From Candidatus Omnitrophota bacterium (lineage in GTDB: Bacteria > Omnitrophota > Gorgyraeia > Gygaellales > Profunditerraquicolaceae), in NCBI GenBank assembly GCA_028717885.1, contig JAQUMX010000002.1, positions 12,237 through 76,236 of the forward strand: a stretch of DNA of 64,000 nucleotides, in the 5' to 3' direction. Positions 4,105 to 56,529 of this stretch are shown here, piece by piece. Each line of letters begins with the position of its first letter. Positions within the stretch are counted from its first letter, which is position 1. Made by a program: the position numbers and the translations under genes. The notes below the pieces were generated by a model, which did no database searches, was not told the origin of the DNA, and saw only the letters and a program-made list of their open reading frames with translations.

Positions 4105-4122
4105 AGAACGGAGTTTAGGCTT

Positions 4123-7036: not shown

Positions 7037-7578
7037 AAGCGGTATTCCTGGACCGCGATGGCGTGATTAACCGCTATCCCGGAGACAAAAAATACGTTAC
7101 TAACGTAAACGCCTTTAAGTTCCTCCCAGGAGTAAAGAAGGCAATTGCCCAATTAACCAAGAGAGGATATGGGATTTTTGTCATTTCTAACCAGGCAGGC
7201 GTAGGGAGAAAGATTTATTCCCGTAGTACTCTGGCGGCAATTACCGAAAAAATGCTGCAAGGGATAAGAAACGCAGGAGGGGACCTTGCCGGCGTATATT
7301 ATTGCACGCACCGTAAAGAAGAAAATTGTTCCTGCCGTAAGCCAAAAACAGGCTTGATTCACCGGGTTATTTCGGAATTTCCGGTAGACCTAAAAGAAGC
7401 GTATTTTGTAGGCGACACTATTCGTGATGTCCTTACTGCCAAAGCAGCCGGATGCAAGTCTATCCTCGTATTTTCCGGGAAAGAAAAATTGAGCAATAAA
7501 AAGAGCTGGGAAGCTGCGCCGGATTTTTTTTGCCGTGACCTTTCTTTGGCCGCAAAACTGATCTTGAGAGGAAAATAG
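7033..7578 (+). CDS. gmhB: D-glycero-D-manno-heptose 1,7-bisphosphate 7-phosphatase (HAD-IIIA)
   Basis: 181 aa. FLDRDGVIN catalytic motif and the Zn-binding insert CTHRKEENCSCRKPKTGL. Confidence 0.8.
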   Translation: MKAVFLDRDGVINRYPGDKKYVTNVNAFKFLPGVKKAIAQLTKRGYGIFVISNQAGVGRKIYSRSTLAAITEKMLQGIRNAGGDLAGVYYCTHRKEENCSCRKPKTGLIHRVISEFPVDLKEAYFVGDTIRDVLTAKAAGCKSILVFSGKEKLSNKKSWEAAPDFFCRDLSLAAKLILRGK

Positions 7579-7585
7579 AATCCCT

Positions 7586-27421: not shown

Positions 27422-27428
27422 GAATATA

Positions 27429-33586: not shown

Positions 33587-34534
33587 ATGAATACTGAATT
33601 AATCAAGAAATTCTATGCCTTGCTTTTTTTGATCCGCAGGACTGAAGAGGAAATTATCCGGCTTTACCCGACGGACATAATCAAGAGCCCGGTACATTTA
33701 TCTATTGGCCAGGAAGCGGTTTCCGTGGCTGTTTGCCAGGCGCTTAAGCCTTTAGACCTGGTATTCGGGACATACCGCGGCCATGCGATGTACTTGGCAA
33801 AAGGCGGTAATTTGCGCTCCATGATTGCTGAGTTGTATGGAAAGATTTCCGGGTGCGCAAAAGGAAAGGGCGGATCAATGCACCTTATTGATTTGCGCAA
33901 AGGGGTAATGGGGACTTCAGCAGTAGTAGGGACTACTATTCCTCTTGCCGTTGGTTATGCTTATGCTTTAAAATATAAAAACCGCAATGATATCGTTGCC
34001 TGTTTTTTTGGCGATGGAGCTGTAGATGAAGGGGATTTCCATGAAGCGCTTAATTTCGCGGCATTAAAAAAATTACCTGTGCTGTTTGTTTGCGAAAATA
34101 ATTTTTATGCTATTCATTCCCACCATCTTAGCCGACATCATTCCGATAATATTTGCGAGCGTGCGAAGAGTTATGGCATGCCTGCAATGAGGATAAAAGA
34201 TGGGGATATTTTCAAAATATACAAGGCTGCAAGTAGGTATATGGAAAAGATTAGAAAGGGTAGTGGCCCGGCTTTTATCGAGTGTATTACCTGCCGCTGG
34301 AAAGAGCATGTCGGCCCCGGGGATGATTTCCACTTAGGCTATAGAAAAAAGGAAGAAGTTGCTTGCTGGAAGCATAACGACCCTTTAGATAAAATGAGGG
34401 TTTTATTGGATGATAAGGCCAGGGGCTTGATTGAATCGAAAATAGAAAAAGAAATCGAAGCAGCTTTTCTTTTTGCGCAAAAAGATAGTTTTCCGGGAAA
34501 AAATGAACTTTTGAAGGATCTTTTTGATGATTAA
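33587..34534 (+). CDS. ThDP-dependent 2-oxoacid dehydrogenase E1 component, alpha subunit-like
   Basis: 315 aa. ThDP motif GDGAVDEGDFHEALNFAALKKLPVLFVCENN (GDG-x-NN). Confidence 0.8.
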   Translation: MNTELIKKFYALLFLIRRTEEEIIRLYPTDIIKSPVHLSIGQEAVSVAVCQALKPLDLVFGTYRGHAMYLAKGGNLRSMIAELYGKISGCAKGKGGSMHLIDLRKGVMGTSAVVGTTIPLAVGYAYALKYKNRNDIVACFFGDGAVDEGDFHEALNFAALKKLPVLFVCENNFYAIHSHHLSRHHSDNICERAKSYGMPAMRIKDGDIFKIYKAASRYMEKIRKGSGPAFIECITCRWKEHVGPGDDFHLGYRKKEEVACWKHNDPLDKMRVLLDDKARGLIESKIEKEIEAAFLFAQKDSFPGKNELLKDLFDD

Positions 34535-35585
34535 AGGCGCGATGCGTATTTTAAGCTATCCTCAGGCTATTAAAGAAGCAATTGACCAGGAGATGTCCAG
34601 GGATCATTCGGTAATCCTGCTTGGCCAGGGAGTTGATGATCCTAAGGGGACTCTGGGGACGACTAAAGGATTAGCAGAGAAATTCGGCAGAGAAAGGGTT
34701 TTTGATACGCCTTTATCCGAAGACGGAATGACCGGCGTAGCCATTGGCGCTGCTTTAGCAAGATTGCGGCCGATCCATGTGCATATTAGGATGGATTTTC
34801 TGCTTTTAGCAATGAATCAAATTGTAAATATGGCCGCAAAAATGCGTTATATGTTTGGCGCAACTCTCTCTGTGCCTCTAGTGATTCGTGCGATAATCGG
34901 CAAGAGTTGGGGGCAGGGGCCGCAACATTCGCAAAGCCTCTACCCTTTATTGATGAATATCCCGGGATTAAAAATCGTTGCTCCGGTAACTCCTTATGAC
35001 GCCAAGGGCTGCATGATTCAGAGTATCCGTGATAATAATCCGGTAATTTTCATGGAACACCGCCTACTTTATTATCAGAAGGGGTATGTTGCGCAAAAAC
35101 CGTATCTTGTGCCGTTGGGAAAGGCAAGAATCCTGGCACGGGGGCCTGATATCACTTTGGTAGGCGTTTCTTCGATGGTGATAGAATGTTTAAGGGCGCG
35201 GGAATATCTGAGAGAAACCGGGGTACGCGCAGAAGTAATCGATCTTTTATCTTTGAGCCCTTTGGATGCTGATACAGTAATCAAATCTGCTTTAAAAACA
35301 GGAAACCTCCTGGTTATTGATAATGCCTGGTTGCCTTGTGCGGCTGGCGCTGAAATTATCGCCAGGCTCTGTGAAAAAAACCTTTCCCGGAAAATAAAAT
35401 TTGCGCGGATGGGGTTTGCCTTTGTCCCTTGCCCGACTACGCCGTCATTGGAAAAAGAGTTTTATCCTAACGCAGAAAGGATAGCTATACGTGCCTTTCA
35501 GATGTTATTCCCGCGTAAAAAACCATGGGAACCAAAAAATAAAAAAAACAGGCCGGAAGAGGTGTTATTTAAAGGGCCTTTTTAG
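34524..35585 (+). CDS. ThDP-dependent E1 component, beta subunit-like (transketolase-type pyrimidine-binding and C-terminal domains)
   Basis: 353 aa. VFDTPLSEDGMTGVAIGAAL and FMEHRLLY. The start overlaps the alpha stop; an alternative ATG lies at 34542. Confidence 0.8.
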   Translation: MMIKGAMRILSYPQAIKEAIDQEMSRDHSVILLGQGVDDPKGTLGTTKGLAEKFGRERVFDTPLSEDGMTGVAIGAALARLRPIHVHIRMDFLLLAMNQIVNMAAKMRYMFGATLSVPLVIRAIIGKSWGQGPQHSQSLYPLLMNIPGLKIVAPVTPYDAKGCMIQSIRDNNPVIFMEHRLLYYQKGYVAQKPYLVPLGKARILARGPDITLVGVSSMVIECLRAREYLRETGVRAEVIDLLSLSPLDADTVIKSALKTGNLLVIDNAWLPCAAGAEIIARLCEKNLSRKIKFARMGFAFVPCPTTPSLEKEFYPNAERIAIRAFQMLFPRKKPWEPKNKKNRPEEVLFKGPF

Positions 35586-35599: not shown

Positions 35600-36592
35600 A
35601 TGAATATTTTAATTACCGGTATTACCGGATTTGTGGGCAGCCATCTGGCGGAATATATCTTGAGCTTGAAGGAAAAGCACGAGATTTATGGGGTTTGCCG
35701 TTGGAGGAGCCAGAGGGAAAACCTGGCAAATATTTATAATCAGGTTAATTTGCTTGAAGCCGACCTGGTTGATTTAGGTTCTTTAATCCGTACTTTGCAG
35801 AAGGTAAAACCGCAGGTTATCTTTCATCTTGCAGCGCAAAGCTATGTCTTAAGCAGTTTTAATTCTCCAATGCAGAGTCTTTTTGTAAATGCCATAGGGA
35901 CGCAGAACCTGCTTGAAGCGATAAGGATTAGCGAGATGGATCCGGTAGTCCACATTTGTTCATCATCGGAAGTTTATGGCCAGGTAACGAAGGATGAATT
36001 ACCTATTAAAGAAAATTGCCCTTTTAGGCCGGCTTCGCCTTATGCAGTAAGCAAGGTCGCGGAGGATATGATTGCTTATCAGTACTGGGTTTCCCATAAG
36101 GTCCGCACGATCCGCACCAGGATGTTTACGCATACCGGCCCTCGAAGAGGGGACGTATTTGCGCTTTCTTTTTTTTCTAAACAGGTTGCAGCTGCAGAAT
36201 TAGGCTTAAAAAAGGCCGTGATTCAGGTTGGCAATCTTAATTCTGTAAGGACGTTTTGCGATGTCAGGGATACTGTTAGGGCATATTGGATACTGGTAAA
36301 CAAGTGCCAGCCGGGAGAAGTCTATAATATCGGGGGAAACCGGACTGCTACAATTAAAGAAGCGTTGGATATTTTACTTACTTTTTCGAAGCTAAAATTT
36401 GAAATCAAGGTGGATCAGGCATTATTAAGGCCTTCTGATGTGACTCTGCAGGTCCCCTGTATAGAGAAATTTCAAAAAGAAACCGGTTGGAAACCTGAGA
36501 TTCCTTTAGAAGTTACCTTAAAGGACATGCTTGAATATTGGAGAAAAGAACTTAAAACTTGCCCTTGGAAGGCAAATACGGTAGTGAAATAA
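35600..36592 (+). CDS. GDP-mannose 4,6-dehydratase-family SDR (Gmd/Rmd-like)
   Basis: 330 aa. ILITGITGFVGSHLAEY, SSSEVYG, YAVSKVAED and FTHTGPRRG (compare FNHESPRRG of Gmd). Confidence 0.65.
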   Translation: MNILITGITGFVGSHLAEYILSLKEKHEIYGVCRWRSQRENLANIYNQVNLLEADLVDLGSLIRTLQKVKPQVIFHLAAQSYVLSSFNSPMQSLFVNAIGTQNLLEAIRISEMDPVVHICSSSEVYGQVTKDELPIKENCPFRPASPYAVSKVAEDMIAYQYWVSHKVRTIRTRMFTHTGPRRGDVFALSFFSKQVAAAELGLKKAVIQVGNLNSVRTFCDVRDTVRAYWILVNKCQPGEVYNIGGNRTATIKEALDILLTFSKLKFEIKVDQALLRPSDVTLQVPCIEKFQKETGWKPEIPLEVTLKDMLEYWRKELKTCPWKANTVVK

Positions 36593-36601: not shown

Positions 36602-38077
36602 ATGAAAAGAGGGGCGGACATAGTTTTAATTAATCCGGGCCATCGCAAAGCCGTTTTTCAGGATTTAGCGGCTGATTATTCAGCGATTGAGCCGCCATTC
36701 TGGATAGCCGCTATTGCTGCTTATCTATTAAACAAAGGGTTTCAGGTCGCGGTAATTGATGCTAACGCCGAAACAATAAGTCCAGAAGAGATTACTAAAG
36801 AAGTAAAAGAAATACAGCCATTGATTTGTGCGGTAATTGTATACGGTTCTCAGCCTTCTGCTTCAACGCAAAATATGACTGTTGCCGGCTTGATCTGCCG
36901 GGAACTTAAGAATCATACAACTTCTAAGATTGCTCTTGGTGGGCTGCATCCTTCTGCTTTACCTGGGAGGACAATGGAGGAAGAGGCGGTAGATTTTGTT
37001 ATTGATGGAGAGGGGCCGTATACCTTGGCAAGCCTGTTAGAACTTCTTAAAGCCAATAGAAGCGATTATTCTAAGGTACCCGGATTATGGTATCGCCAGA
37101 AGAAGGCGGTAATAAGCAATCCGCGCGCGGCGCTAATAAAAAACCTTGATGAGATTTCGCCTCTTGCTGCGTGGGAGCTATTGGCGATGCATAAATACAG
37201 GGCGCATAATTGGCACTGTTTCGATGGCCTTGATAATCGCATGCCTTATGCGGCAATTTATACCAGCCTGGGGTGCCCTTATGCATGTACTTTCTGTTGT
37301 ATTAATGCGCCTTTTGGCGAGCATATTATCAGGTACCGTAGCCCGGCTTTAGTAGTAAACGAAATTGAATTTTTGGTAAAGAAATACGGTATTAGCAACC
37401 TGAAAATAGTTGATGAATTATTCATATTTAATGAAGAACATTATATGGCAATTGTCGATCTAATATTAGAGAAAGGCCTTGATTTAAATATCTGGGCTTA
37501 TGCCAGGATAGATACGGTAAATTTCTCTAATTTAGAGAAAATGAAGCGCGCGGGGATTAATTGGCTGGCAGTGGGGATAGAATCGGCAAGTGAATTTGTC
37601 AGGGATGGAGCGGATAAACGTATACGGCGGCGGGATATTATCGAAACAGTCAGAAAGATCCAGTCTGCCGGCATTAATGTGGTAGGGAATTATATTTTTG
37701 GCTTACCCGACGATAACCATGATACCATGCAACAGACCTTGGATTTGGCTTTGGAGATAAACGCAGAATGGGCGAATTTTTATTGCGCGATGGCGTATCC
37801 GGGTTCAAAGCTTTATGAGATCGCCCTGGCAGAGAAGTGGGCGTTACCGCAAAGTTGGATAGGATTTTCCCAGCATGCGTACGAGACGCTTCCTTTGCCG
37901 ACGAAATATCTCAATGCCAAAGAGGTTTTGAATTTTAGGGACGAAGCCTTTCTTAAATATTTCCAGAGCGATAGATACCTGGCTTTAATAAGAAAAAAAT
38001 TCGGGGAAAAACCAGAAAGGCATATTCGTGAAGTAACCGGGGTAAAATTAACAAGGAAAATACTTCAGGGGGAATAA
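36602..38077 (+). CDS. Cobalamin-binding (class B) radical SAM enzyme, paralogue C
   Basis: 491 aa. IDGEGPYTLASL, and TSLGCPYACTFCC at 37274-37297. Confidence 0.8.
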   Translation: MKRGADIVLINPGHRKAVFQDLAADYSAIEPPFWIAAIAAYLLNKGFQVAVIDANAETISPEEITKEVKEIQPLICAVIVYGSQPSASTQNMTVAGLICRELKNHTTSKIALGGLHPSALPGRTMEEEAVDFVIDGEGPYTLASLLELLKANRSDYSKVPGLWYRQKKAVISNPRAALIKNLDEISPLAAWELLAMHKYRAHNWHCFDGLDNRMPYAAIYTSLGCPYACTFCCINAPFGEHIIRYRSPALVVNEIEFLVKKYGISNLKIVDELFIFNEEHYMAIVDLILEKGLDLNIWAYARIDTVNFSNLEKMKRAGINWLAVGIESASEFVRDGADKRIRRRDIIETVRKIQSAGINVVGNYIFGLPDDNHDTMQQTLDLALEINAEWANFYCAMAYPGSKLYEIALAEKWALPQSWIGFSQHAYETLPLPTKYLNAKEVLNFRDEAFLKYFQSDRYLALIRKKFGEKPERHIREVTGVKLTRKILQGE

Positions 38078-38082: not shown

Positions 38083-40068
38083 ATGGCTGCTGACAGGCGC
38101 AGGGTTTATTTTAACGAATTTAATGTTTTGATGGACAGGACGGCTTATCTGCCGCTAGTGTCCGGATTATTGGCTGCTTATGCCTCTAAATTCGAAGAGA
38201 TAAAATCCAATTATGAATTTATGCCCTTTTTATTTGTACGCAATTCAGTAGAAAATCTATTATTGAATTACCGGCAACCTTGCGTGGCTGCTTTTTCCGT
38301 ATCGGTATGGAATGAACAGCTTAACCTGCAAGTAGCCAGGAGGCTCAAAGAACTATTTCCTGCCTGCCTGGTTGTTTTTGGCGGGCCCCAGGTTCCGCGT
38401 GATTCAAAAGAATACTTCAAGAAACACCCTTTTATCGACTTGGTAGTGCATGGTGACGGAGAAGAAACCCTGGCTGCAATACTACTCAGGTATTTGGTTT
38501 CTTCTGATTTTAGCAATATCCCGAACATTTCCTGGAGGGACCCTATTAAAGGAGGGTATCGGCAAAGTGGAGTTTCAGCTGCCCGGGCAAAAGAACTTGA
38601 TGACTATCCTTCTCCATATGTAAGCGGAATTTTTGATTATCTTTTTACAGATAGCCAGGCACTGAATTTTCAGGCAATCATTGAAACTAACCGGGGTTGC
38701 CCATATCAATGTGCTTATTGTGTTTGGGGTGGAATGAATAAAAAAATGCGTTTTCATAGTTTAGAATATGTTTATGCTGAAATTGAATGGTGCGCAAACC
38801 ATGGTATTAGATACGTTTTTAATGCCGATTCAAATTTCGGAATTAATGAGCGCGATAAACAAATAGCCGAGAAGCTTGCGGAAGCTAAGCATAGATTTGG
38901 GTTTCCGGAGAAATTCAGAAGTTGTTTTGCTAAGAACTGCGAAGAAAGGATTTACGATATAGCTAAGATCCTGGTTCAGGAAAAACTGGAAAAGGGTATT
39001 ACTTTAAGTTTTCAAAGTATGGACAGTAATGTCCTGGATAATATTAAGAGGCAGAATATCGACCTGGGCATATATAAGAAGTTGGTAGGGAGGTTTAATC
39101 AAGAAGGAATCCCGGTTTATTCAGAATTGATTCTGGGGTTACCGGGAGAAAATTTTAAAACCTGGAGCAAGGGGGTGGAGGAGATATTGGAAGCCGGCCT
39201 TAAAGATCAGCTTTTTATTTATCCGTGCGAGGTCTACCCCAATACTGCGCTATCAGAAGAAGGATACCGCAAAGAATTCGGTATTATTACCAAGCGTATC
39301 CGTTTAAGCGAGATTCACGGCCTCATTCGGCAGGAAGAAGAAATCACGGAATACCAGGATATTGTCATTTCTACAACAACCATGGGTTTAGAAGAATGGA
39401 AAAAAATGATGATCTTTTCTTGGTTGATGATGTTCTTTTTTAGTATGAAAGTGGGATTCTTTATTTTATCCTACATTTTTTTACGTTATAAAATTCAATT
39501 TGTTAAACTTATTGAATTTATCTATCAGGATCAATCTGCTATCCCCGCGTTCTTGCGCGAGGAATTAGCCAGCTATAAGCAGATTTTGGAGCAAATACTC
39601 CAGGGAGGCAGAAAAGCTGTGATAATGCCGTTATTCGGCAATATCTATTGGGATGTAGAAGAAGCAAGTTTCTTAAGGCTATCCGAAAGGAGCGGTGAAT
39701 TTTATGAACAGATGCTGCCGTTCCTGGAAAATTTCCTTAACCAGCAAGGGGTATCTTTTGAGCAGAAAGAACTAATGGAGTCCGTTAAATATCAAAGGAT
39801 GCGTTTTCCTTCTTTTATGCCCTCGGCAATAACCGAGTATGAATTCCAATACAATTTCCCGGAATTTTTTGAAAACTATCTTAGGAATAAGGCCATTCCC
39901 CTAGAACAAAAAAGTCAAATATTAAGGATTTTTCCAAAGGATTTTAAGTCTGATAGGTTTGCCTACGCCCGCCAGATAGTTTTAGAAGGCAGAAAGAGCA
40001 ATCGTATATTGACGGAATCAAGTTGGTCTAATAAAAAAACGGAAGCGCCATTGGCAAGGAAAGGTTGA
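38083..40068 (+). CDS. Cobalamin-binding (class B) radical SAM enzyme, paralogue D, with a long C-terminal extension containing one hydrophobic helix
   Basis: 661 aa. VHGDGEETLAAI, and TNRGCPYQCAYCV at 38698-38721. Hydrophobic segment MMIFSWLMMFFFSMKVGFFILSYIFL at 39406-39483. Confidence 0.75.
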   Translation: MAADRRRVYFNEFNVLMDRTAYLPLVSGLLAAYASKFEEIKSNYEFMPFLFVRNSVENLLLNYRQPCVAAFSVSVWNEQLNLQVARRLKELFPACLVVFGGPQVPRDSKEYFKKHPFIDLVVHGDGEETLAAILLRYLVSSDFSNIPNISWRDPIKGGYRQSGVSAARAKELDDYPSPYVSGIFDYLFTDSQALNFQAIIETNRGCPYQCAYCVWGGMNKKMRFHSLEYVYAEIEWCANHGIRYVFNADSNFGINERDKQIAEKLAEAKHRFGFPEKFRSCFAKNCEERIYDIAKILVQEKLEKGITLSFQSMDSNVLDNIKRQNIDLGIYKKLVGRFNQEGIPVYSELILGLPGENFKTWSKGVEEILEAGLKDQLFIYPCEVYPNTALSEEGYRKEFGIITKRIRLSEIHGLIRQEEEITEYQDIVISTTTMGLEEWKKMMIFSWLMMFFFSMKVGFFILSYIFLRYKIQFVKLIEFIYQDQSAIPAFLREELASYKQILEQILQGGRKAVIMPLFGNIYWDVEEASFLRLSERSGEFYEQMLPFLENFLNQQGVSFEQKELMESVKYQRMRFPSFMPSAITEYEFQYNFPEFFENYLRNKAIPLEQKSQILRIFPKDFKSDRFAYARQIVLEGRKSNRILTESSWSNKKTEAPLARKG

Positions 40069-40069: not shown

Positions 40070-41053
40070 ATGATTATCAGCAGAACTCCTTTACGTATTT
40101 CTTTTTTTGGCGGCGGAACCGATTATCCGCTTTGGTACAACGAAAATGGCGGGGCTGTTTTAGCCACAACTATTAATAAGTACTGCTTTATTACCTGCAG
40201 GCACCTGCCGCCGTTTTTTGAGCACAAATCGCGTATTGTTTATTCGCATATAGAGAACGTCAAAGAAATCTCTGAGATCAGGCATCCTTCCGTAAAGTCA
40301 TGCCTTGAATTTATGAAGATTAAGCAGGGGATTGAAATCCATCATGACGGTGACCTGCCGGCAAGGTCAGGCCTGGGCTCAAGCTCCGCTTTTACAGTCG
40401 GGTTGCTGCATAGTTTGTATGCATTAGCAGGAAAAATGCCGACAAAGCGGCAGCTGGCGCTGGATGCCATTCAGGTGGAACAGAAAATGATTAAGGAAAA
40501 TGTCGGTTCACAGGACCAGGTCCTGGCTGCTTTTGGGGGCTTTAACCGCGTTGAATTCGGCGGTAATCAGCATATTCAGGTGCGCAAGATTACTGTCAGC
40601 CAGGAAAAACTTGAATCTTTGCAATCTCATATGATGCTTTTTTTTACGGGGTTCTCCAGGATTGCTTCGGAAATTGCCAGCGAACAGCTAAAGAATATCC
40701 CTCAAAAAAAGAAAGAACTAAAAACTATGCATCAAATGGTTGACCAGGCTACCGAAATCATGAATAGTGGCAGGATTGATGAATTCGGCAGGTTATTGCA
40801 TGAATCCTGGAAGCTTAAGAAATCACTTTCGCACAAAATCAGCAATCCCGATATTGACGAAATTTACGCTTGTGCAAGAAAGTCCGGAGCAACCGGTGGA
40901 AAGCTGCTGGGGGCCGGCGGCGGCGGTTTTATCCTGTTTTTTGTCCAACCGGAAAAACAAAAACAACTAAAAGAAAAATTAAAAAAACTTTTATGGGTGC
41001 CTTTCAGGTTCGAGGACCTAGGCAGCCAGATAATTTTTTATCAGCAAACATAA
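40070..41053 (+). CDS. hddA: GHMP kinase, D-glycero-alpha-D-manno-heptose 7-phosphate kinase-like
   Basis: 327 aa. ISRTPLRISFFGGGTDYPLWY and the GHMP motif PARSGLGSSSAFTVGL. Confidence 0.7.
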   Translation: MIISRTPLRISFFGGGTDYPLWYNENGGAVLATTINKYCFITCRHLPPFFEHKSRIVYSHIENVKEISEIRHPSVKSCLEFMKIKQGIEIHHDGDLPARSGLGSSSAFTVGLLHSLYALAGKMPTKRQLALDAIQVEQKMIKENVGSQDQVLAAFGGFNRVEFGGNQHIQVRKITVSQEKLESLQSHMMLFFTGFSRIASEIASEQLKNIPQKKKELKTMHQMVDQATEIMNSGRIDEFGRLLHESWKLKKSLSHKISNPDIDEIYACARKSGATGGKLLGAGGGGFILFFVQPEKQKQLKEKLKKLLWVPFRFEDLGSQIIFYQQT

Positions 41054-41793
41054 TGCTAAAAACTAAAGATATCGATGTAGTTATTCTTTCCGGAGGATTG
41101 GGGAAGAGGTTGCGGAAAGTGATAAATGACCGCCCAAAGCCTATGGCAGAAATTAACGGACAACCGTTCCTGGAGATAATTGTAACTTACCTAAGGAAGA
41201 TCGGATTCAAAAGTTTTATCTTCAGCACCGGTTATAAAGCGGGAAAAATCAAACAATATTTTATCAAAAAGGGTAGCCAGCGGTATTATTTCTCGCACGA
41301 AAAAATACCATTGGGTACCGGAGGGGCGGTAAAGAATGCGAAGAAATTTATTAAGAGTAGGCTTTTTCTTGTTTTGAACGGGGATTCATTCTGTAAGGTT
41401 GATTTTTCCGGCTTTTTGAAATTTCACTCCAGAAAAAAAGCTGTTTTTTCGATGGTTTTAGTAAAAAACATGAATAACTGTGATTTTGGTTCGGTTAAGC
41501 TGGAGAAAACAGGCAGGGTCAGTAATTTCAAGGAAAAGGGGATCCCTCTTGCCGGCAGTAATTTGTTAAATGCGGGCATTTATCTTTTTTCTTCGCGCAT
41601 ATTCTCGTTAATGCCTCGGAAAAAAAGATTTTCCCTGGAATACGACCTCCTGCCTCTATTGGTGAAAAAAAGGTTATTTGGGTTCCGAACGCAGGGGCCG
41701 TTAATTGATATAGGGACAAAGCAAGGATTGGCTGCTGCTGGGGTATATTTTAAAAAATACGGTGGATTCTTGTCTAAGGGGGTTGGGAGTTAA
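41053..41793 (+). CDS. hddC: Sugar-1-phosphate nucleotidyltransferase, heptose-1-phosphate guanylyltransferase-like
   Basis: 246 aa from the ATG at 41053 (TAATG overlap); the listed 40870 start is an out-of-frame overlap with hddA. VVILSGGLGKRLR ... PKPMAEINGQPFLE. Confidence 0.7.
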   Translation: MLKTKDIDVVILSGGLGKRLRKVINDRPKPMAEINGQPFLEIIVTYLRKIGFKSFIFSTGYKAGKIKQYFIKKGSQRYYFSHEKIPLGTGGAVKNAKKFIKSRLFLVLNGDSFCKVDFSGFLKFHSRKKAVFSMVLVKNMNNCDFGSVKLEKTGRVSNFKEKGIPLAGSNLLNAGIYLFSSRIFSLMPRKKRFSLEYDLLPLLVKKRLFGFRTQGPLIDIGTKQGLAAAGVYFKKYGGFLSKGVGS

Positions 41794-42993
41794 ATGAGAA
41801 TTGATTTCGGTACGGTAGAAATAACGGAATATTCAAAAAAGTTAATTGCACAGATACTTGATTCTGGCAGAGTTTCCAGCGGGAAATATGTCCGTGAATT
41901 TGAAAAAAAATTTGCCGAATTAGTCGGCGTTAAAGAAGCTGTGGCAGTTTCAACCGGCACTGACGCCGATGCTTTGGCGTTGGCTGTGCTTTATGATTTC
42001 GGTGCCAACAGGGAAGATGAAATAATTATTCCTGCCTTGTCTTTTGTAGCGACGGGTAATGCTGTATTACAGGCTGGTTTTAAGCCGGTTTTTGTGGATG
42101 TAAAAAGAGAAACTTTTAATATCGATCCGCAATTGATTGAAAAAGCGATTACTCCCAGGACCCGGGCAATCATGCCGGTGCATCTTATGGGTAAACCGGC
42201 ACAGATGCAGGAAATAAGCAGTTTAGCAAAGAAGCATAAACTCTACGTAATTGAGGACGCGGCAGAAGCTCACGGAGCGGTTTATCATGGGAATAATGTA
42301 GGCTGTTTATGCGATATGGGGGCTTTTAGCCTCTATGTTGCGCATATTATCACTACTGTCGAAGGCGGGATTATTACTACTAATAACCCGGAATTTGCCG
42401 AGATCCTAAGGTCATTGAGAAGCCATGGCCGTGCCTGTAAATGTGAGTCATGCGTAATTAATACAAGTTCTGCACATTGTCCGAAACGTTTTAAATCCAA
42501 TGGTAGCGCAGATATCAGGTTTATCTTCGAGAGGATTGGTTTTTCTGCTAAAATGAACGAGTTGGAAGCAGCAGTCGGGCTTGGTAATTTACAATTTTAC
42601 AGGGATATTCTTGATAAAAGAAGGGATAATCTCTACTATCTAATGGATAAATTCCGGAAATTTTCTTCTTATATGCAGACAATTGAAAAAGAAAATGATG
42701 AAGAGATCGGGCCACACGCCTTTCCGATCGTAATCAACGAAGGAGCAGGTTTTAGCCGGAATTCATTCGTCGAATTTCTTGCCAGCAAAGGCATTGATTC
42801 ACGTAATTTATTTACTTCTATGCCTACGCAATGCCGTGGGTTTGCATTCCTCGGGTACAAGCCGGGTGATTTTCCGAATGCCGAATATATCGGCAACAAT
42901 GGGCTGCATATCGGGGTACATCAAAATTTGGGAAAAACGGAATGTGATTATTTTATCGATATGGTTAATGAATTTTTAGAAAAGTATCTTTAG
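41794..42993 (+). CDS. DegT-family PMP/PLP enzyme with His replacing the Schiff-base Lys: NDP-4-keto-6-deoxyhexose 3-dehydratase (ColD/E1-like)
   Basis: 399 aa. FSLYVAHIITTVEGG places His184 (codon 42343-42345) at the -6 position from EGG, where aminotransferases carry Lys. Downstream Cys cluster CKCESCVINTSSAHC (42436-42480). Confidence 0.65.
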   Translation: MRIDFGTVEITEYSKKLIAQILDSGRVSSGKYVREFEKKFAELVGVKEAVAVSTGTDADALALAVLYDFGANREDEIIIPALSFVATGNAVLQAGFKPVFVDVKRETFNIDPQLIEKAITPRTRAIMPVHLMGKPAQMQEISSLAKKHKLYVIEDAAEAHGAVYHGNNVGCLCDMGAFSLYVAHIITTVEGGIITTNNPEFAEILRSLRSHGRACKCESCVINTSSAHCPKRFKSNGSADIRFIFERIGFSAKMNELEAAVGLGNLQFYRDILDKRRDNLYYLMDKFRKFSSYMQTIEKENDEEIGPHAFPIVINEGAGFSRNSFVEFLASKGIDSRNLFTSMPTQCRGFAFLGYKPGDFPNAEYIGNNGLHIGVHQNLGKTECDYFIDMVNEFLEKYL

Positions 42994-43012
42994 TGTTTTG
43001 GAGGGAGTTGAA

Positions 43013-43972
43013 ATGAAGAAGGAAAGGGTTTTGGTAACAGGCGCTGGCGGGTTCATCGGCCATCATCTCATAAAATACCTCAAGAAGAAAGGTTATTGGG
43101 TAAGAGGGGTGGATATTAAGGCGCCGGAATACGAAAAGACACCGGCCGATGAATTTATGATCCTTGATTTGCGCAGTTGGCCGAATTGCCTGCGTGCCCT
43201 CATTGGGATCAACCATGTTTATAATCTGGCGGCAAATATGGGAGGGATTGGTTTTATTCATTCTCATAAAGCAGAAATTGTGCATGATAATACTTTGGTG
43301 AGCATAAATATGTTGGAGGCTGCCAGGTTAAACGGGGTTTCGAAATTTCTTTTTACTTCCTCTGCCTGTGTTTATCCTTCTTACCGGCAGGATATACCGG
43401 AGGTTACAGGGCTTAAAGAGGAAGATGCGTATCCTGCTGACCCGGAAGACGGCTATGGCTGGGAAAAGCTTTATACTGAAAGGGCTTGCCGGCATTATTA
43501 TGAGGACTTCGGATTAAATACTTATATTGTACGTTTCCATAATATTTATGGCCCGCTGGGGACTTACGATGGAGGAAGAGAGAAATCGCCTGCGGCGATT
43601 TGCCGTAAAATTGCCCTTGCCAAGAAAAATGGCACAATTGAAGTCTGGGGAGACGGAAAGCAAACGCGTTCTTATTGCTATATTGGTGATTGCGTCGAAG
43701 GTATTTATCGCCTTATGCAATCCGATTATCATCAGCCGCTTAATCTCGGTACGGATCGGATGGTTACAATAGACGAATTAGTAGGGATAGTGGCTAAGAT
43801 CGCCGGAAAAAAGATATTGAAACGCTACGATTTAAGCAAGCCCCAGGGGGTACGGGGAAGAAACAGCGACAATAGCCGGTTACGTAAAGTTTTAGGATGG
43901 GAACCGAAAACCCCGCTGGAAAAAGGCTTAACCATAACCTATAAATGGATTCGCAGGCAACTTAAAACGTAA
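43013..43972 (+). CDS. GDP-mannose 3,5-epimerase (GME)-like SDR
   Basis: 319 aa from the ATG at 43013 (GGAGGGA ribosome-binding site). LAANMGGIGFI, SSACVYP, YGWEKL and RFHNIYGPLGTYDGGREKSPAAICRK closely parallel plant GME (LAADMGGMGFI, SSACIYP, YGLEKL, RFHNIYGPFGTWKGGREKAPAAFCRK) as I recall it. Confidence 0.75.
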   Translation: MKKERVLVTGAGGFIGHHLIKYLKKKGYWVRGVDIKAPEYEKTPADEFMILDLRSWPNCLRALIGINHVYNLAANMGGIGFIHSHKAEIVHDNTLVSINMLEAARLNGVSKFLFTSSACVYPSYRQDIPEVTGLKEEDAYPADPEDGYGWEKLYTERACRHYYEDFGLNTYIVRFHNIYGPLGTYDGGREKSPAAICRKIALAKKNGTIEVWGDGKQTRSYCYIGDCVEGIYRLMQSDYHQPLNLGTDRMVTIDELVGIVAKIAGKKILKRYDLSKPQGVRGRNSDNSRLRKVLGWEPKTPLEKGLTITYKWIRRQLKT

Positions 43973-48502: not shown

Positions 48503-49212
48503 CGAGTAATTTGATTTCATTAGTATTGCCGGTTTATTTTCAGGCAGACCATATTGACAAGGTAGTTAAGGAATACGATCAGATATTGCAACGCCTGCGC
48601 CTTCAATATGAGATGATCCTAGTGGTTAATGGGGCAGGAGACGAGTCTTTAAAGAAATGCGATAATCTGGCAAAAGAATATGCTAATGTACAGGTAGTTT
48701 ATATTAGGCAGAGTGGATGGGGCAGGGCTGTGAGAGCCGGGTTAAAAGAATGCAAAGGCGATTTGGTCTGTTATGCTAATTCCGCGCGGACTAGCGCCAA
48801 AGACCTGTTGTTGATATTAACATATGCTATTGCTTATCCTGATGTAGTGATTAAAGCGAACCGTGAAAGCAGGGATTCCTGGCAGCGCAGGATAGGCTCC
48901 TGGTTATATAACATTGAATGCAGGACATTATTTAACCTGCCTTATTGGGATATAAACGGAACACCGAAAATATTCCCGCGTTCTTTTAATAAGCTGCTTT
49001 CGCTCACTGCAAATGATGATTTGATTGATCTTGAGTTTAATCTTATCTGCCGCAGCGAGAATTATCCGGTGATTGAGGTGCCTATTTTTTACAGCAAGCG
49101 CCAGGGCGGCAGAAGCACAACAAATTATTATTCCGCATTTAAGCTGTATCTTGGCGCTTATAAGATTTGGCAAGAAAAAAGAAGGCAAGATGAAAGAAAG
49201 AAGAAAACGTAA
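48499..49212 (+). CDS. Glycosyltransferase family 2 (short, polyprenol-phosphate glycosyltransferase-like)
   Basis: 237 aa with a GTG start. ISLVLPVYFQADHI ... LVVNGAGDES, a variant of the DDGSxD motif. Confidence 0.6.
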   Translation: MTSNLISLVLPVYFQADHIDKVVKEYDQILQRLRLQYEMILVVNGAGDESLKKCDNLAKEYANVQVVYIRQSGWGRAVRAGLKECKGDLVCYANSARTSAKDLLLILTYAIAYPDVVIKANRESRDSWQRRIGSWLYNIECRTLFNLPYWDINGTPKIFPRSFNKLLSLTANDDLIDLEFNLICRSENYPVIEVPIFYSKRQGGRSTTNYYSAFKLYLGAYKIWQEKRRQDERKKKT

Positions 49213-50353
49213 CCTGGGGCGGATTTGGTACGGCCACAACATGGAATGGCGTGATCCTGCTCAGGTTGTCGGGCAATGGAAGGAAGCTTCCCATGTTGCT
49301 CCGGGGTTAATTGCATATTCAATACGGGGTAAATGGTGGGATATCCTGGCAGAAAATAAAATTACACTTTTGGTGACGCGTGAATATGAACATCTGGCAA
49401 TGGCAATGCGGGCGGATAGCAAAGGGGGTTCAATTTCCTATATCAGGCTGGCGCATCCTTCCGGTTTAGCAGTTGACCGGGATAAAAATATTATTTATTT
49501 GGCTTCTACGCGTAATCCTAATCAAATTTATGACTTTTTGCCGGCAAAATCAGGTATCCCAGTGTTGCTTCCGCACAGGTCACGGTTTTTTCCTGGTAAT
49601 CTCTATATCCATGATTTAGCCCTGATAAAGAATACGCTTTTTGCAAATGCTGTCGGGCATAATTCAGTAATTCGAATCCTTGATCATGGGAATTTTCTCC
49701 CTGTTTGGTGGCCTAAATGCATGGAGCAAGCCGGTAAGGCAGCATTTTCGCGTAATTACATACAATTAAATTCTATTGCTTGCGGAAATAGTTTACGCAA
49801 TTCATTCTTTTCTGCATCTGCAGACACAATTTCGCGGATTAGGCCTGGGCAGAAGAATTTTCCAGTAGATAAACGTGGCGTGATTTTTTCAGGAGCTACT
49901 CGGGAACCAGTAGTCAGGCAATTGACGCGCCCACATTCTGCTCGTTTATATCATAAAGAGCTATGGGTCAATAATAGCGGTTACGGTGAATTTGGGATAG
50001 CCGATACAAAAAAAGGGACATTTTCGCCGCTAAGGCGTTTTTCAGGCTGGACGCGCGGCCTGTGTTTTTACAAGAATATTGCTTTTGTGGGGACTTCCAG
50101 GGTAATTCCGCGTTTCCGTCAATACGCTCCAGGCGTAGACATGAATAAAAGCGAGTGCGCAGTCCACGCTATTGAAATAAAATCAGGAAAAATTTTGGCA
50201 AGCTTGGTTTGGCCTCAGGGGAATCAAATATTTGCCCTGGATTGGATAAAAAGCGGGATAACCACTGGTTTCCCTTTTTTCGCTTTTGACAGTAAGACAG
50301 CAAAAAAACAAAAAGAACTTTTTTATAATTTCAAAATTGGAGGGAATGCATGA
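49190..50353 (+). CDS. Hypothetical protein, possibly TIGR03032/DUF4915-like beta-propeller
   Basis: About 387 aa from the ATG at 49190 (alternative ATG at 49241). The listed 49073 start overlaps the GT2. The family assignment is only a memory-based resemblance (LLVTREYEHLAMAM..., repeated beta-strand-like pattern). Confidence 0.45.
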   Translation: MKERRKRNLGRIWYGHNMEWRDPAQVVGQWKEASHVAPGLIAYSIRGKWWDILAENKITLLVTREYEHLAMAMRADSKGGSISYIRLAHPSGLAVDRDKNIIYLASTRNPNQIYDFLPAKSGIPVLLPHRSRFFPGNLYIHDLALIKNTLFANAVGHNSVIRILDHGNFLPVWWPKCMEQAGKAAFSRNYIQLNSIACGNSLRNSFFSASADTISRIRPGQKNFPVDKRGVIFSGATREPVVRQLTRPHSARLYHKELWVNNSGYGEFGIADTKKGTFSPLRRFSGWTRGLCFYKNIAFVGTSRVIPRFRQYAPGVDMNKSECAVHAIEIKSGKILASLVWPQGNQIFALDWIKSGITTGFPFFAFDSKTAKKQKELFYNFKIGGNA

Positions 50354-51279
50354 AGGATGGATTTCGGTTCCTGATGATCAGCGCAATGTATGAAAATGGC
50401 GGCAACACTACTCAAAGGTTTTTGGACGGGCATCCTCAGATGCTGGTATACCCCTTTGAATCACAGCTGGGCACGCGCCTGGTAAATGACAGCCTAACTT
50501 CGTTTTTTCCGGTAAAATACCGCTGGCCAGTATTTGACCTCGCAGCTTGCGCCCTGGATGATTACCGCATGATTATTGATGAAGAAGCAAAGGTAAGAGC
50601 CAGGACGCCTAATGTAAGTAAATTCCGCCATATGCCTTTTGATTTTTCCGACGATGAGCGTTGCCAGATCTACCAGCATTACATCAATAGGGAGGGCCGG
50701 TCAAGGCCAAAAAACATAAGCGCATTCTTTCGCTCTACTTTTGATGCCTGGAAAGATTATAACAGATCAGGCAAGGAAACTGTTTTTGTCGGGTATAGCC
50801 CGGTTATTGTTGTAGATGCAGAAAAAATCTTAAGCGAGTTGCCGCAAGCACATTTGTTGCATGTCGTGCGTAATCCCTGGTCTGCTTATGCCGATACTAA
50901 GAAAAGGCCCGTACCTTTATCGTTGGCAAATTACTTATTGGCCTGGAATTTAAACCAGTATTTTGCTTTGACTTTTAAGCTAAAATTTCCCGGCAGGCTG
51001 CACATCTTGCGTTTTGAAGATATTATTGAGAACCCCTTGAAAGTATTAGGGGGTTTATGCAGGAAGATTGGGCTTAATGCCTCATCTACGCTAAAAATTC
51101 CTACCTGGAATGGCAGAGAACTGAAAGAAGTTTATCCGTGGGGTACGATACGTAAGCCTGAACCAAAAGCAAATCTTGCCACAGCAAAAGAATTAACTGT
51201 TCAGGAGAGAAACGAAATTCGTGTGCTGGCACGGCAATATATCGAGATTTTTAATTACAGAAACTTTATACATTCATGA
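50350..51279 (+). CDS. Sulfotransferase-family protein
   Basis: 309 aa. N-terminal P-loop-like SAMYENGGNTTQRFL (5'-PSB position) and HVVRNPWSAYAD (3'-PB-like RNP...S). Confidence 0.6.
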   Translation: MKDGFRFLMISAMYENGGNTTQRFLDGHPQMLVYPFESQLGTRLVNDSLTSFFPVKYRWPVFDLAACALDDYRMIIDEEAKVRARTPNVSKFRHMPFDFSDDERCQIYQHYINREGRSRPKNISAFFRSTFDAWKDYNRSGKETVFVGYSPVIVVDAEKILSELPQAHLLHVVRNPWSAYADTKKRPVPLSLANYLLAWNLNQYFALTFKLKFPGRLHILRFEDIIENPLKVLGGLCRKIGLNASSTLKIPTWNGRELKEVYPWGTIRKPEPKANLATAKELTVQERNEIRVLARQYIEIFNYRNFIHS

Positions 51280-53766: not shown

Positions 53767-56029
53767 AAGAAAAAATCTTGCATATCGCTTTACCTTAAGT
53801 GCATTTTTTTGTATTTTTTTAATCTTTAGTTTTCTTTTTTTCTCCAAGGCGCTGAATCGAAACTGGATTTATGTGGGGGATAGCTTGAATTCCTTAATGG
53901 GCTATTCTTTTCATTATTCCGGAATTGCCAGAGGAGAATATGCAATCTGGAACCCTTTAGTCAGGGCAGGAGATAATGAGGTTGTCTTTCAGATGTTCGG
54001 TTTAGCAAATCCGCTTTCAAATTTTGTAATTCTCGGGTCTGTTTTATTAAAACTGAAAGACATTGTCTTTTCTTATTCATTTTACATTTATCTTATGGTT
54101 ATTATATACGTGAGCGGAATGTTTTTTCTGCTTAGGGTATTGACTAAAAACCGCTATGCCGCGGTTTTAGCTGCCGCTTTAGCATTAAGTTCTTCCAGCG
54201 TATGCTTTTACACTTACCATGTTTTCTTTATTACTATATTATACGCGGTCCCTTGGATGTTGTATTCCTTAGTATCATATTTTCAGGAATTACGTTTGCG
54301 TTACATCGTCATTTTTACGTTGTCGTTTTGCCTGTTTCTGTATTCTTATGAAGCAGTAATGGGGATAATTTATTTAGGGTCGCTTTTCTTTTCATATTGC
54401 CTGTTTTATTATAAAGGCGCGAAGGAAAAATTAAAGCAGCTAGGTAAAATTAATCCTGGGCATGTCTTTCTTTTTTTTCTTCTTATGGTAATTTTCTCCT
54501 TGCCGATGGTTATAATGTTTTTTGAGTATAGGTCCGGGCTATTGCCAATCTCGCGCGTGGCCAATATTGCTGTAACGGAAAAATTCGGGCTGGTATTTGA
54601 CAAATTATTCTCCAAAAGCCACTGGTTTGCTTTTTCTTCGCCTAAATTTTTTGTGAATTTTTTTACCGGGTTCATTTTTCAGGATTTTAACGAAATCAGG
54701 CATTATATCGGCCCGGTAGCAGCAATACTGTTTATTAGCGCCCTTTTTTCCTTTCGCAGGCGTATTTATTGTCTGGCTTTTGCAGGAGCCCTGGTTGGGT
54801 TTTTTTCCGGCGATATTTTTCCGGTGAATCTTCTTTTAAAACTGCCGCTTTTAGAATCGATCAGGAACTTACACTTTTTAATGCAATTTTTCGTAATGAA
54901 TTCGATTATTCTGGCGGTTTTTGGATTTGATCTTCTTTTAAGAAAGCGTACCTTATGGCTAAAAAAGGGGTTTAATTTTGCGGTCATTATAATTTTTTTG
55001 GCGTCTTTATCTTGTTTTGTATCCGTTCCTTTCGGCTATCGGCTTTACGATTCTTTAACATTAGCCTTGGTGTTAGCAGCCTGTGCTGCGCTTTTTTATT
55101 GCGTGAACTTTGTTACACTGGCAAAACAGCCTGTTTTTATCGTAATAATTGGCTTATTCAGTTGTATTAGCTCATTCGCTATGATTAGCAGTATTCCGGT
55201 TTTATCCGGCGGCATTACGGAAAACAGCGAATTGCTCACATTACGCAACCGCAGGGCGCACGGCCTTGTGTTTCTGCGGCAGAGGCCATCCGAGATTAAG
55301 ACTATTGACCTTGGCCAGGCCTGGGATAAATGGGAGACCGATTTCGGGAAAGATGAATATTATTCTTTATTGGCCCTTACTGATAATTCCTACAAGAGCG
55401 AGAAAAAAAGCTTTGGGCTTTCTTCTTTTCCGGTTTTAAACGAATACTATCTTTTTTTATCAATTCCGGGGCATGAAAAATTCCTTAATGAGAAGTTCTT
55501 TTTCTTCCGTAATTATTATACTTCGAATGACCCCGCTGACATGTATTCTTTTGTAAAAAATCCTGGTTTATTGGAAGAGATGCTTTCTATGAACCAAGCA
55601 GTTATATTTGGTTATAAAGGCGGCTCTTATGGAATGCCATTGGGAGAATTTAAGCAATTTGCCTTAACGCGCGGCAGTTCGCAGGTTAGTGCTGTGGATG
55701 ATTTTTCCGTGAAGGTCAGAGACTATAAAGCCAACCGAATTAAACTGGATTTATTCCTAAAACATCCAGGGTTGTTTACTTTTACGGATTTTTGGGCAAA
55801 GGGATGGGCGGTTAAGGTTGATGGAAAAAATGCCTGTTTGCAGCGGGTTTTTTACGCATTTAAAGGCGTTTTTTTACCGGCAGGTAACCACAAGGTGGAG
55901 TTTTTCTACAGGGACAGCGCCTATTATTACCTGGTTTTAATGCATCTTGTTTTTCTTTTGTGCCTTGTTATTTTAGCAATCAGTTTATTGAAACCGCTAA
56001 TCAGGAGGAGGCTATGGCAGAACGCATAA
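53756..56029 (+). CDS. Large polytopic membrane protein, YfhO/GT-C-like (putative periplasmic glycosyltransferase)
   Basis: About 757 aa. More than 12 hydrophobic helices, a soluble domain of about 200 aa, and a terminal TM helix. This architecture resembles YfhO-family proteins. Confidence 0.55.
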   Translation: MAIKRKNLAYRFTLSAFFCIFLIFSFLFFSKALNRNWIYVGDSLNSLMGYSFHYSGIARGEYAIWNPLVRAGDNEVVFQMFGLANPLSNFVILGSVLLKLKDIVFSYSFYIYLMVIIYVSGMFFLLRVLTKNRYAAVLAAALALSSSSVCFYTYHVFFITILYAVPWMLYSLVSYFQELRLRYIVIFTLSFCLFLYSYEAVMGIIYLGSLFFSYCLFYYKGAKEKLKQLGKINPGHVFLFFLLMVIFSLPMVIMFFEYRSGLLPISRVANIAVTEKFGLVFDKLFSKSHWFAFSSPKFFVNFFTGFIFQDFNEIRHYIGPVAAILFISALFSFRRRIYCLAFAGALVGFFSGDIFPVNLLLKLPLLESIRNLHFLMQFFVMNSIILAVFGFDLLLRKRTLWLKKGFNFAVIIIFLASLSCFVSVPFGYRLYDSLTLALVLAACAALFYCVNFVTLAKQPVFIVIIGLFSCISSFAMISSIPVLSGGITENSELLTLRNRRAHGLVFLRQRPSEIKTIDLGQAWDKWETDFGKDEYYSLLALTDNSYKSEKKSFGLSSFPVLNEYYLFLSIPGHEKFLNEKFFFFRNYYTSNDPADMYSFVKNPGLLEEMLSMNQAVIFGYKGGSYGMPLGEFKQFALTRGSSQVSAVDDFSVKVRDYKANRIKLDLFLKHPGLFTFTDFWAKGWAVKVDGKNACLQRVFYAFKGVFLPAGNHKVEFFYRDSAYYYLVLMHLVFLLCLVILAISLLKPLIRRRLWQNA

Positions 56030-56529
56030 ATTCGGATTATAGAATTATAGTCTATAAAAAGAAGGCGTCTTTTTATATGGTTATACCGGAATTAAATCTT
56101 ATTACCAGAGGGGATGATATACTTTGCGCTTACCAAAACCTGGAAAAGGCTAAAAAAGAATTATTTGACAAGTTTAACGAGTTAGGCCAGGAGGAATTGA
56201 TACCGCAGCCACTAAAAGAAAACCGGCTGGTTTTTTGGGGCAATCTGAAGGATTTCTTAGCTAAGGAGCTTATTGTCTGCTTGACTGTTATTTTAATTAT
56301 TTTTGCTACTGGAGCGGTCTTTGCCGTATCATTAAGGCAATATCTTGTACGGGCACAAGCAGCAGTTACCATTGAATCCGTAGAGCGCTTTGCACAACGA
56401 CTGAGAGCTATTTCACCGGAAAGGAAAAAGAGGCTAAAAGACAGCCTTCATTCAGCCGTTAAGGAGCTGGAGCCCTATAGCGAAGAATTAAGCCCGCTTT
56501 TTAAACAGAAAAGTGATTTAAATAGATGA
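56014..56529 (+). CDS. Hypothetical single-pass membrane protein
   Basis: 171 aa from the ATG at 56014 (AGGAGGAGG ribosome-binding site). One TM helix (LIVCLTVILIIFATGAVFAV) sits between two charged, probably helical domains. Confidence 0.55.
   Translation: MAERINSDYRIIVYKKKASFYMVIPELNLITRGDDILCAYQNLEKAKKELFDKFNELGQEELIPQPLKENRLVFWGNLKDFLAKELIVCLTVILIIFATGAVFAVSLRQYLVRAQAAVTIESVERFAQRLRAISPERKKRLKDSLHSAVKELEPYSEELSPLFKQKSDLNR

Follow-up and report, generated by a model that had tools for sequence, protein, structure and literature searches.

The nucleoside diphosphate (NDP)-sugar 3-dehydratases E1, ColD and SpnQ form a class in which, as PMC8987622 describes it, a histidine substitutes for the Schiff-base lysine of the aminotransferases and serves as the catalytic base; in E1 and SpnQ, four cysteines bind a [2Fe-2S] cluster, which ColD is described there as lacking. 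Here, we analysed a gene at positions 41794-42993 of a 64,000-nucleotide stretch of Candidatus Omnitrophota DNA (contig JAQUMX010000002.1; the whole stretch, 1-64000, is called the window), and refer to its product as the 41794 protein. Its sequence suggests that it is probably a pyridoxamine 5′-phosphate (PMP)-dependent, iron-sulfur (Fe-S)-assisted NDP-sugar 3-dehydratase of the E1 type, whose substrate, destined for a surface glycan, would probably be a GDP-linked heptose or hexose in its 4-keto-6-deoxy form. This kind of enzyme is already known; the gene belongs to an uncharacterised, widespread, highly conserved and cassette-borne subfamily.

E1 (AscC/DdhC/RfbH of Yersinia and Salmonella; structures 3bcx and 3bb8) is a CDP-6-deoxy-L-threo-D-glycero-4-hexulose 3-dehydrase. 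The 41794 protein resembles it in the DegT fold, in the His at the Lys position and in a loop of the form G-R-x-C-x-C...C...C-[PK]-[KR]-R-F, and by analogy the PMP-dependent C3 deoxygenation via an Fe-S cluster that is described for E1 would be expected of it. Unlike E1 (437 amino acids), the 41794 protein has only 399 residues and lacks the N-terminal extension of about 35 residues; its loop is spaced C-x-C-x2-C-x8-C rather than C-x-C-x3-C-x3-C, Ala-Ala stands at the positions of E1 C192/C193, no E3 partner was found, and the neighbouring genes resemble GDP-sugar genes more than CDP-glucose genes. ColD (WbdK; 2gms, 3b8x), a GDP-4-keto-6-deoxy-D-mannose 3-dehydratase, is described as a His-type enzyme like the 41794 protein, with PMP regenerated from glutamate and no Fe-S cluster; in contrast, the conserved four-Cys loop sets the 41794 protein apart from the ColD type, which has no Fe-S Cys loop. 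The likeness to the colitose pathway lies in the Fcl/ColC-like short-chain dehydrogenase/reductase (SDR) gene that follows the 41794 gene and in the probably GDP-linked substrate.

SpnQ, the TDP-4-keto-2,6-dideoxy-D-glucose 3-dehydrase of spinosyn biosynthesis, is described as a His-type Fe-S enzyme without a dedicated E3, as we propose for the 41794 protein. It differs in acting on TDP-sugars in actinomycete secondary metabolism, and the two are likened here by description only. In Campylobacter jejuni, 3-deoxygenation of a GDP-heptose is reported as established: the GDP-6-deoxy-4-keto-D-lyxo-heptose C3-dehydratases of serotypes HS:5 and HS:11 deoxygenate C3 of the GDP-heptose made via HddA and HddC (PMC10440746). 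These enzymes are given as 62-67% identical to characterised GDP-sugar 3-dehydratases of E. coli O55:H7 and Y. pseudotuberculosis, which we take to be ColD and its orthologue; their assays contained pyridoxal 5′-phosphate (PLP) and L-glutamate, and the main text of that report never uses the term 'iron-sulfur' (PMC10440746). Unlike them, the 41794 protein is E1-like and carries the Cys loop. The C. jejuni reaction would nevertheless be the likeliest one for it if its sugar is a heptose.

A histidine-type DegT-fold protein nearest to E1

The gene and the two elements on which its assignment turns are as follows.

41794-42993, + strand: gene for a predicted E1-type (His/Cys-loop) DegT-fold sugar 3-dehydratase of 399 amino acids (Pfam, E1 match, AlphaFold2 model)
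42343-42345, + strand: His184 codon CAT, replacing the aminotransferase Schiff-base Lys and corresponding to E1 His220
42436-42480, + strand: Cys loop C215-x-C217-xx-C220-x8-C229, putative Fe-S ligands (sequence, conservation, alignment with the E1 loop)

The open reading frame (ORF) runs from ATG to stop, with GGGAG a few bases 5′ of the ATG at 41794, which abuts the stop of the preceding gene. Pfam PF01041 (DegT/DnrJ/EryC1/StrS) matched residues 10-391 with 326.5 bits against a cut-off of 19.8. Among solved structures, the top sequence match was E1 3bcx, the Yersinia CDP-4-keto-6-deoxyglucose 3-dehydrase (E 2.2e-58), which ranked above the sugar aminotransferases and ColD (E 8e-51). An AlphaFold2 model computed from a 99-sequence alignment reached a mean predicted local distance difference test (pLDDT) score of 95.9, and Foldseek placed it in the DegT fold, as the initial annotation had proposed. 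The query-normalised TM-score was highest for E1 (0.89-0.90), and by Foldseek E-value the nearest folds were aminotransferases. The best NCBIfam model was RfbH (NF011936), and the 41794 protein is not an RfbH equivalog. Public records name the protein and its homologues DegT-family or dTDP-4-amino-4,6-dideoxygalactose aminotransferases; these names are automatic family labels.

His184 lies within FSLYVAHIITTVEGG. In a HMMER alignment, it paired with the His of wild-type E1 (3bcx) and with the Lys of the H220K entry 3bb8, indicating that His184 occupies the position of E1 His220. We then examined a close set of 120 database homologues with at least 69% identity: His184 was kept in 120 of 120, and also in the 99-sequence alignment and in a wider one of 26 sequences. 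The substitution of His for Lys that had been noticed in the initial annotation is therefore confirmed, as is its remark that the second DegT gene of the window (4123-5232) is of the Lys type, with the motif FFPGKNLG. The comparison with E1 and ColD that it had called for was carried out at the level of sequences and profiles; the His fell on the E1 His220 column, and E1 was the closer of the two. Judged by this residue, the 41794 protein belongs with the His-type NDP-sugar 3-dehydratases E1, ColD and SpnQ. Its family cannot, by sequence, form the Lys Schiff base and most likely deoxygenates sugars, and relabelling the aminotransferase records would change the surface-glycan prediction for many uncultured bacteria.

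A Cys loop homologous to that of E1

Bases 42436-42480 encode CKCESCVINTSSAHC, which contains C215, C217, C220 and C229, the four-Cys cluster seen in the initial annotation. All four were invariant in 120 of 120 close homologues, and among 26 diverse loop-bearing relatives (30-76% identity) C215, C220 and C229 were invariant and C217 was kept in at least 90%. Outside the loop, C171 and C173 were not conserved in the close set; C347 was kept in 120 and C384 in 112 of the 120, and both were absent from the consensus of the wider 26-sequence alignment. The conservation of the four cysteines, proposed as a check, thus holds at both distances.

We compared a profile of 26 loop-bearing sequences with the known enzymes. 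E1 scored 425.9 bits, perosamine synthase 337 and ColD 331.9, so that ColD stood about 94 bits under E1. The profile pattern GRaCkCevC....C[pk]kRF aligned with GRDCYCAPGC-DNTCKKRF of E1, placing C215, C217 and C229 on the columns of E1 C251, C253 and C261. On these alignments the Cys loop of the 41794 protein is homologous to the Cys-rich loop of E1, and the possibility raised earlier of an Fe-S-dependent E1-type enzyme gains support from this homology.

We further surveyed 151 sequences, namely the query and 150 representatives of 50%-identity clusters. The catalytic column held His in 128, Lys in 19 and another residue or a gap in 4. The strict loop motif was found in 26 His-type sequences and one truncated sequence; one more carried four Cys at a different spacing, four carried three and five carried one. 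Across the survey the loop cysteines thus seem nearly all-or-none, as would be expected for a joint metal site. In a rough FastTree phylogeny of 119 sequences, built without E1 and ColD, the His-type proteins stood apart from the Lys-type proteins, and loop-bearing and loop-less lineages were interleaved.

Gene neighbourhood and the candidate sugar

The genes around the 41794 gene are listed below with their bit scores against the respective cut-offs. All NCBIfam matches of these neighbours fell under the curated cut-offs, so the nucleotide and the sugar can be read from them only indirectly.

33587-34534 and 34524-35585, + strand: alpha and beta subunits of a thiamine diphosphate (ThDP) enzyme like pyruvate dehydrogenase (PDH) E1, candidate C-branching enzyme (PDH E1 alpha 300.1, cut-off 393.85; beta subfamily 277.3, cut-off 321)
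35600-36592, + strand: GMD-like NDP-sugar 4,6-dehydratase, which may provide the 4-keto-6-deoxy sugar (PF16363 246 bits; gmd 163, cut-off 415)
36602-38077, + strand: B12-binding radical S-adenosylmethionine (SAM) enzyme, a partner conserved in the cassette (Pfam B12-binding and Radical_SAM; HpnJ 159.6, cut-off 577.6)
38083-40068, + strand: KedN5-like radical-SAM enzyme of the C-methyltransferase type (KedN5 family 269.8, cut-off 700; Pfam Radical_SAM only)
40070-41053, + strand: HddA-like GHMP sugar kinase (Pfam GHMP_kinases_N/C; HddA 167.5, cut-off 600)
41053-41793, + strand: HddC/ManC-like sugar-1-phosphate nucleotidyltransferase (Pfam NTP_transferase; HddC 144.5, cut-off 300)
42998-43972, + strand: GDP-fucose-synthase/ColC-like SDR (Pfam Epimerase; Fcl 134.9, cut-off 500)
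from 43973, + strand: GT4 glycosyltransferase (TIGR03088 PEP-CTERM glycosyltransferase 203, cut-off 409.05)

The ATG of the transferase gene at 41053 shares one base with the stop of the kinase gene. This transferase fitted HddC and mannose-1-phosphate guanylyltransferase best, and the cytidylyltransferase model covered its residues 8-72 only. The dehydratase at 35600 also scored 147.8 bits with the dTDP-glucose dehydratase model and 101 bits with the CDP-glucose dehydratase model of NCBIfam. The adjacent glucose-1-phosphate cytidylyltransferase and CDP-glucose 4,6-dehydratase genes of CDP-3,6-dideoxyhexose pathways were not found among the window neighbours. The SDR at 42998 is a candidate 4-ketoreductase downstream of the 3-dehydratase step, and possibly an epimerase too. 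The B12 type of the 38083 enzyme rests on NCBIfam, not on Pfam.

The initial annotation had left the product as a 3-deoxy-heptose or a 3,6-dideoxy sugar, and both fit neighbours that comprise an HddA-like kinase, an HddC-like guanylyltransferase, a GMD-like dehydratase and an Fcl/ColC-like reductase. A heptose is plausible given the HddA and HddC best matches, the GmhB-type phosphatase gene at 7033 and the GT9 heptosyltransferase genes at 1011 and 3031, and we regard the chances for and against it as evenly balanced. In yersiniose synthesis, YerE is reported to act on the E1 product (PMC9306805), and by analogy the 3,6-dideoxy-4-keto product may be branched at C4 by the ThDP pair.

Search for an electron donor

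Given that the initial annotation had seen no E3-like reductase in the window, we scanned 58 window ORFs, all on the + strand, for the E3 domains Fer2, FAD_binding_6 and NAD_binding_1, and none was found, in agreement with that statement. The genome search that it had suggested was performed on the source genome (1.47 Mb in 66 contigs, 88% complete) with Fer2, NAD_binding_1 and Flavodoxin_1, followed by domain scans of the matches, and yielded no E3-type chain at this level of completeness. Three of the four NAD_binding_1 matches were PyrK-type FAD/[2Fe-2S] subunits and the fourth was interrupted by a contig end. The PyrK-type subunits were rejected as a dedicated partner, none being near the 41794 gene. 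The genome holds one flavodoxin. Given that general ferredoxin/flavodoxin reductase systems are described as replacing E3 for SpnQ (PMC8987622), a missing E3 is no argument against the Fe-S route.

The sole Fer2 match of the genome was a RACo-like reductive activator of corrinoid proteins, with Fer2 at its N-terminus, located at C23:13202-15175 of the source genome G000, minus strand (locus L001). It may serve the numerous B12 radical-SAM enzymes of this genome.

Proposed reaction

The reading as a C-3 deoxygenase, with which the analysis started, is supported by homology and context, namely by the His, the loop, a profile nearest to E1 and the neighbours. We observed the fold, the His, the conserved loop with its likeness to that of E1 and the gene neighbourhood directly, and from homology and context we infer a cofactor, cluster, donor, substrate and product as follows.

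By analogy with E1, PMP would form a Schiff base with the C4 keto group of an NDP-4-keto-6-deoxy sugar, His184 would take the C4′ proton, and the 3-hydroxyl would depart. The 3,4-ene intermediate would then gain two single electrons via an Fe-S cluster on C215, C217, C220 and C229, and hydrolysis would give a 3,6-dideoxy-4-keto sugar and regenerated PMP. The electrons would come from a general donor, the flavodoxin of the genome or a ferredoxin, with no dedicated E3, as for SpnQ. The substrate is probably GDP-linked: the GHMP kinase and the guanylyltransferase-like enzyme would build it, and the GMD-like enzyme would oxidise and dehydrate it. The product would probably be reduced by the next SDR (42998), and the ThDP and B12 radical-SAM enzymes may give it a C-branch or a methyl group before it is transferred to a surface glycan.

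Related loci

We next collected 80 related loci from public metagenome-assembled genomes (MAGs), with 55-71% identity to the 41794 protein; flanks of 8 kb were analysed, so all counts are lower bounds. The loci came from Omnitrophota, Planctomycetota, Elusimicrobia, Deltaproteobacteria, Dehalococcoidales and one Woesearchaeota bin, and across these groups the identity within the subfamily was about 55-76%. The usual gene order was radical-SAM, kinase, transferase, E1-like gene. A homologue of the transferase was present in 70 of the 80 loci, mostly directly upstream of the E1-like gene, and one of the kinase in 63 (62 at 56-68% identity and one at 28%). The radical-SAM enzyme of the 36602 type had homologues in 59 loci, mostly at 40-55% identity with a few at 25-34%. 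The 38083-type radical-SAM homologue occurred in one locus of 80, and the 38083 gene is specific to the source locus. One conserved SDR type, represented by L044:3771-4700, was found in 55 loci, at 57-93% identity in all but one; it had no close orthologue in the source genome, where the best matches reached 23-32% identity. GMD-like dehydratases (21 of 80), GmhB-like phosphatases (20 of 80) and PDH-E1-like subunits (11-12 of 80, also annotated in L020, L024 and L025) were less frequent. Pfam annotation of six related loci agreed with these gene types.

Of 30 close relatives of the source genome, only 3 yielded an orthologue of the 41794 gene, yet other phyla contain homologues with 69-76% identity, which suggests lateral spread of a mobile glycan module. 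More tentatively, and with doubts that outweigh our confidence, a cassette of a B12 radical-SAM enzyme, a GHMP kinase, a guanylyltransferase-like enzyme and the Cys-loop 3-dehydratase, often with a PDH-E1-like pair and SDRs, might make a heptose not described so far, 3,6-dideoxy as well as C-branched and/or C-methylated, that goes into the envelope of Omnitrophota and of further uncultured phyla; the Fe-S cluster would then be held by one contiguous C-x-C-x2-C-x8-C loop, with ligands unlike those of E1, and be fed by a donor other than E3.

The source genome also encodes a paralogue on another contig, at G000:C26:2683-3882 (minus strand; locus L096), with 35% identity, the His and a loop spaced C-x-C-xx-C-x6-C. 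A GMD gene (396.6 bits, cut-off 415) immediately precedes it and GT2 genes follow it, and by its gene content this locus appears to be a colitose-like module with a loop-bearing enzyme. Two further loop-bearing relatives, P0122 (615 amino acids) and P0123 (624 amino acids), are at 49-50% identity and extend about 220 residues further at the C-terminus, which shows that fused forms exist.

Points against the assignment and alternative explanations

Several observations weigh against an E1-type enzyme acting on a GDP-linked sugar. The identity to E1 is only about 29%, and the RfbH model gave 265.2 bits, under its cut-off of 423. Within the loop, C220 lies one residue off E1 C257, the loop is 4 residues longer than that of E1, and the AlphaFold2 model is least confident there (residues about 211-240, block means 66-87). 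Neither in the window nor in the six annotated related loci was an E3 or ferredoxin gene found. As for the identity of the sugar, the HddA, HddC and GMD matches lie far under their cut-offs, and a SIS (GmhA-like) gene was found in one of the 80 loci. Neither a SIS_2 search nor tblastn with two SIS proteins from L020 turned up a GmhA-type SIS_2 gene in the 88%-complete source genome; such a gene scores above the cut-off in 27 of 30 relatives, so this gap is probably an effect of the assembly.

The remaining point concerns the columns of E1 C192/C193.

42259-42264, + strand: Ala156-Ala157 codons, at the columns of E1 Cys192-Cys193

Here EDAAEAHG aligned to EDCCDALG of E1, and among the close homologues Ala was found at position 156 in 119 of 120 and at position 157 in 120 of 120. 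Mutagenesis ascribed to Agnihotri et al. 2004 is said to have identified C193, C251, C253 and C261 (C-X57-C-X1-C-X7-C) as the E1 ligands. If C193 is indeed a ligand, the site in the 41794 protein cannot be identical to that of E1, and the Ala-Ala pair, too, counts against the assignment. In the 151-sequence survey, Cys at the C193 column was present in 93 of 102 loop-less His-type, 7 of 26 loop-bearing His-type and 5 of 19 Lys-type representatives; Cys at this column therefore does not track the loop and is not specific to loop-bearing proteins. With Ala at the C193 column, any four-Cys site of the subfamily would lie wholly inside the loop, and since no Cys stands at this column, the subfamily lends itself to testing which cysteines an E1-type Fe-S site needs.

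The same Ala-Ala pair fits an enzyme that works as ColD does, dehydrating C3, releasing the enamine to hydrolysis and regenerating PMP from L-glutamate without electron transfer. The loop would then be structural or bind zinc, which C-x-C-xx-C motifs are also able to do. The GDP-like context, the ColC/Fcl-like SDR that follows the 41794 gene and the lack of an E3 match in the 88%-complete genome speak for such an enzyme as well, and the characterised GDP-sugar 3-dehydratases, ColD and those of C. jejuni, are described as glutamate-dependent (PMC8987622, PMC10440746). We nevertheless consider it unlikely. The loop is homologous to that of a [2Fe-2S] enzyme, and ColD is described as having no such loop; the profile is far closer to E1 (425.9 bits) than to ColD (331.9 bits); and the SpnQ precedent, as it is described, shows that the absence of E3 fits an Fe-S route. 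Moreover, loop-less His lineages lie among loop-bearing ones in the rough tree, and if the loop can be lost, its retention in 120 of 120 close homologues points to a function.

A still less probable alternative is that the 41794 protein is not a simple 3-deoxygenase and works jointly with its conserved B12 radical-SAM neighbour in another conversion of the activated sugar, for instance a radical-linked deamination, rearrangement or methylation sequence, with the Fe-S loop used for coupling. It draws on the radical-SAM homologue near the E1-like gene in 59 of 80 loci, mostly with 40-55% identity and just upstream of the kinase, and on two further findings: the 36602 enzyme scores above no curated cut-off (HpnJ 159.6 vs 577.6), and an unambiguous 4,6-dehydratase lies within 8 kb in only 21 of 80 loci. 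However, dehydratases may lie beyond the 8 kb flanks, about a quarter of the loci have no radical-SAM gene within 8 kb, and the C26 paralogue stands beside a plain GMD gene with no kinase or transferase adjoining. Every testable residue pattern of the 41794 protein fits the E1/ColD class, and we judge joint action with the radical-SAM enzyme to be quite improbable.

Least credible of all is an aminotransferase in practice, adding an amino group to C4 with PLP and glutamate as SpnQ is described to do in vitro without reductase (PMC8987622) and as the public names of homologues and the nearest folds by Foldseek E-value would have it, since none of the 120 close homologues retains the Schiff-base Lys, the database names were assigned automatically by family, the window has a Lys-type DegT gene at another place (4123), and PMC8987622 describes transamination as not observed for E1 and ColD under such conditions.

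Further observations on the window and related loci

An orthologue of 68% identity was found in L020 (DUFZ01000020.1, a Woesearchaeota archaeon bin), together with a GHMP kinase, a PDH-E1-like pair, a GMD-like gene, two SIS genes and NeuB. Its presence in an archaeal bin reflects either cross-domain transfer or a binning error.

Window positions 3031-10505 and L044:11130-17066, from an Omnitrophota MAG, share the gene order GT9, Lys-type DegT, HAD phosphatase, a glycosyltransferase like monogalactosyldiacylglycerol (MGDG) synthase, and PriA; the window has two extra genes (GT2 and SDR) between DegT and HAD. This synteny supports an Omnitrophota origin of the window. In L044, the E1-like cassette lies directly upstream of the GT9-PriA block.

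The 58 scanned ORFs of the window are nearly all glycan genes, and this stretch makes up more than 4% of the 1.47 Mb genome. Five ORFs carry both the Pfam B12-binding and Radical_SAM domains (24801, 29322, 36602, 45118 and 52252), and one SPASM radical-SAM enzyme is encoded at 24007. The window also encodes two ThDP enzyme pairs, NeuB and a CMP-transferase. Four ORFs of the glycan cluster (26234-27418, 27342-28316, 55960-56526 and 61713-63149) had no Pfam match at E 1e-5 or better. At 11676-12701 and 12702-13700, two tandem paralogues of the galactose-1-phosphate uridylyltransferase/HIT type have a formyltransferase on one side and GAPDH on the other. At 49073-51276, genes for a DUF4915 protein and, after it, a sulfotransferase-family protein hint at a sulfated glycan.

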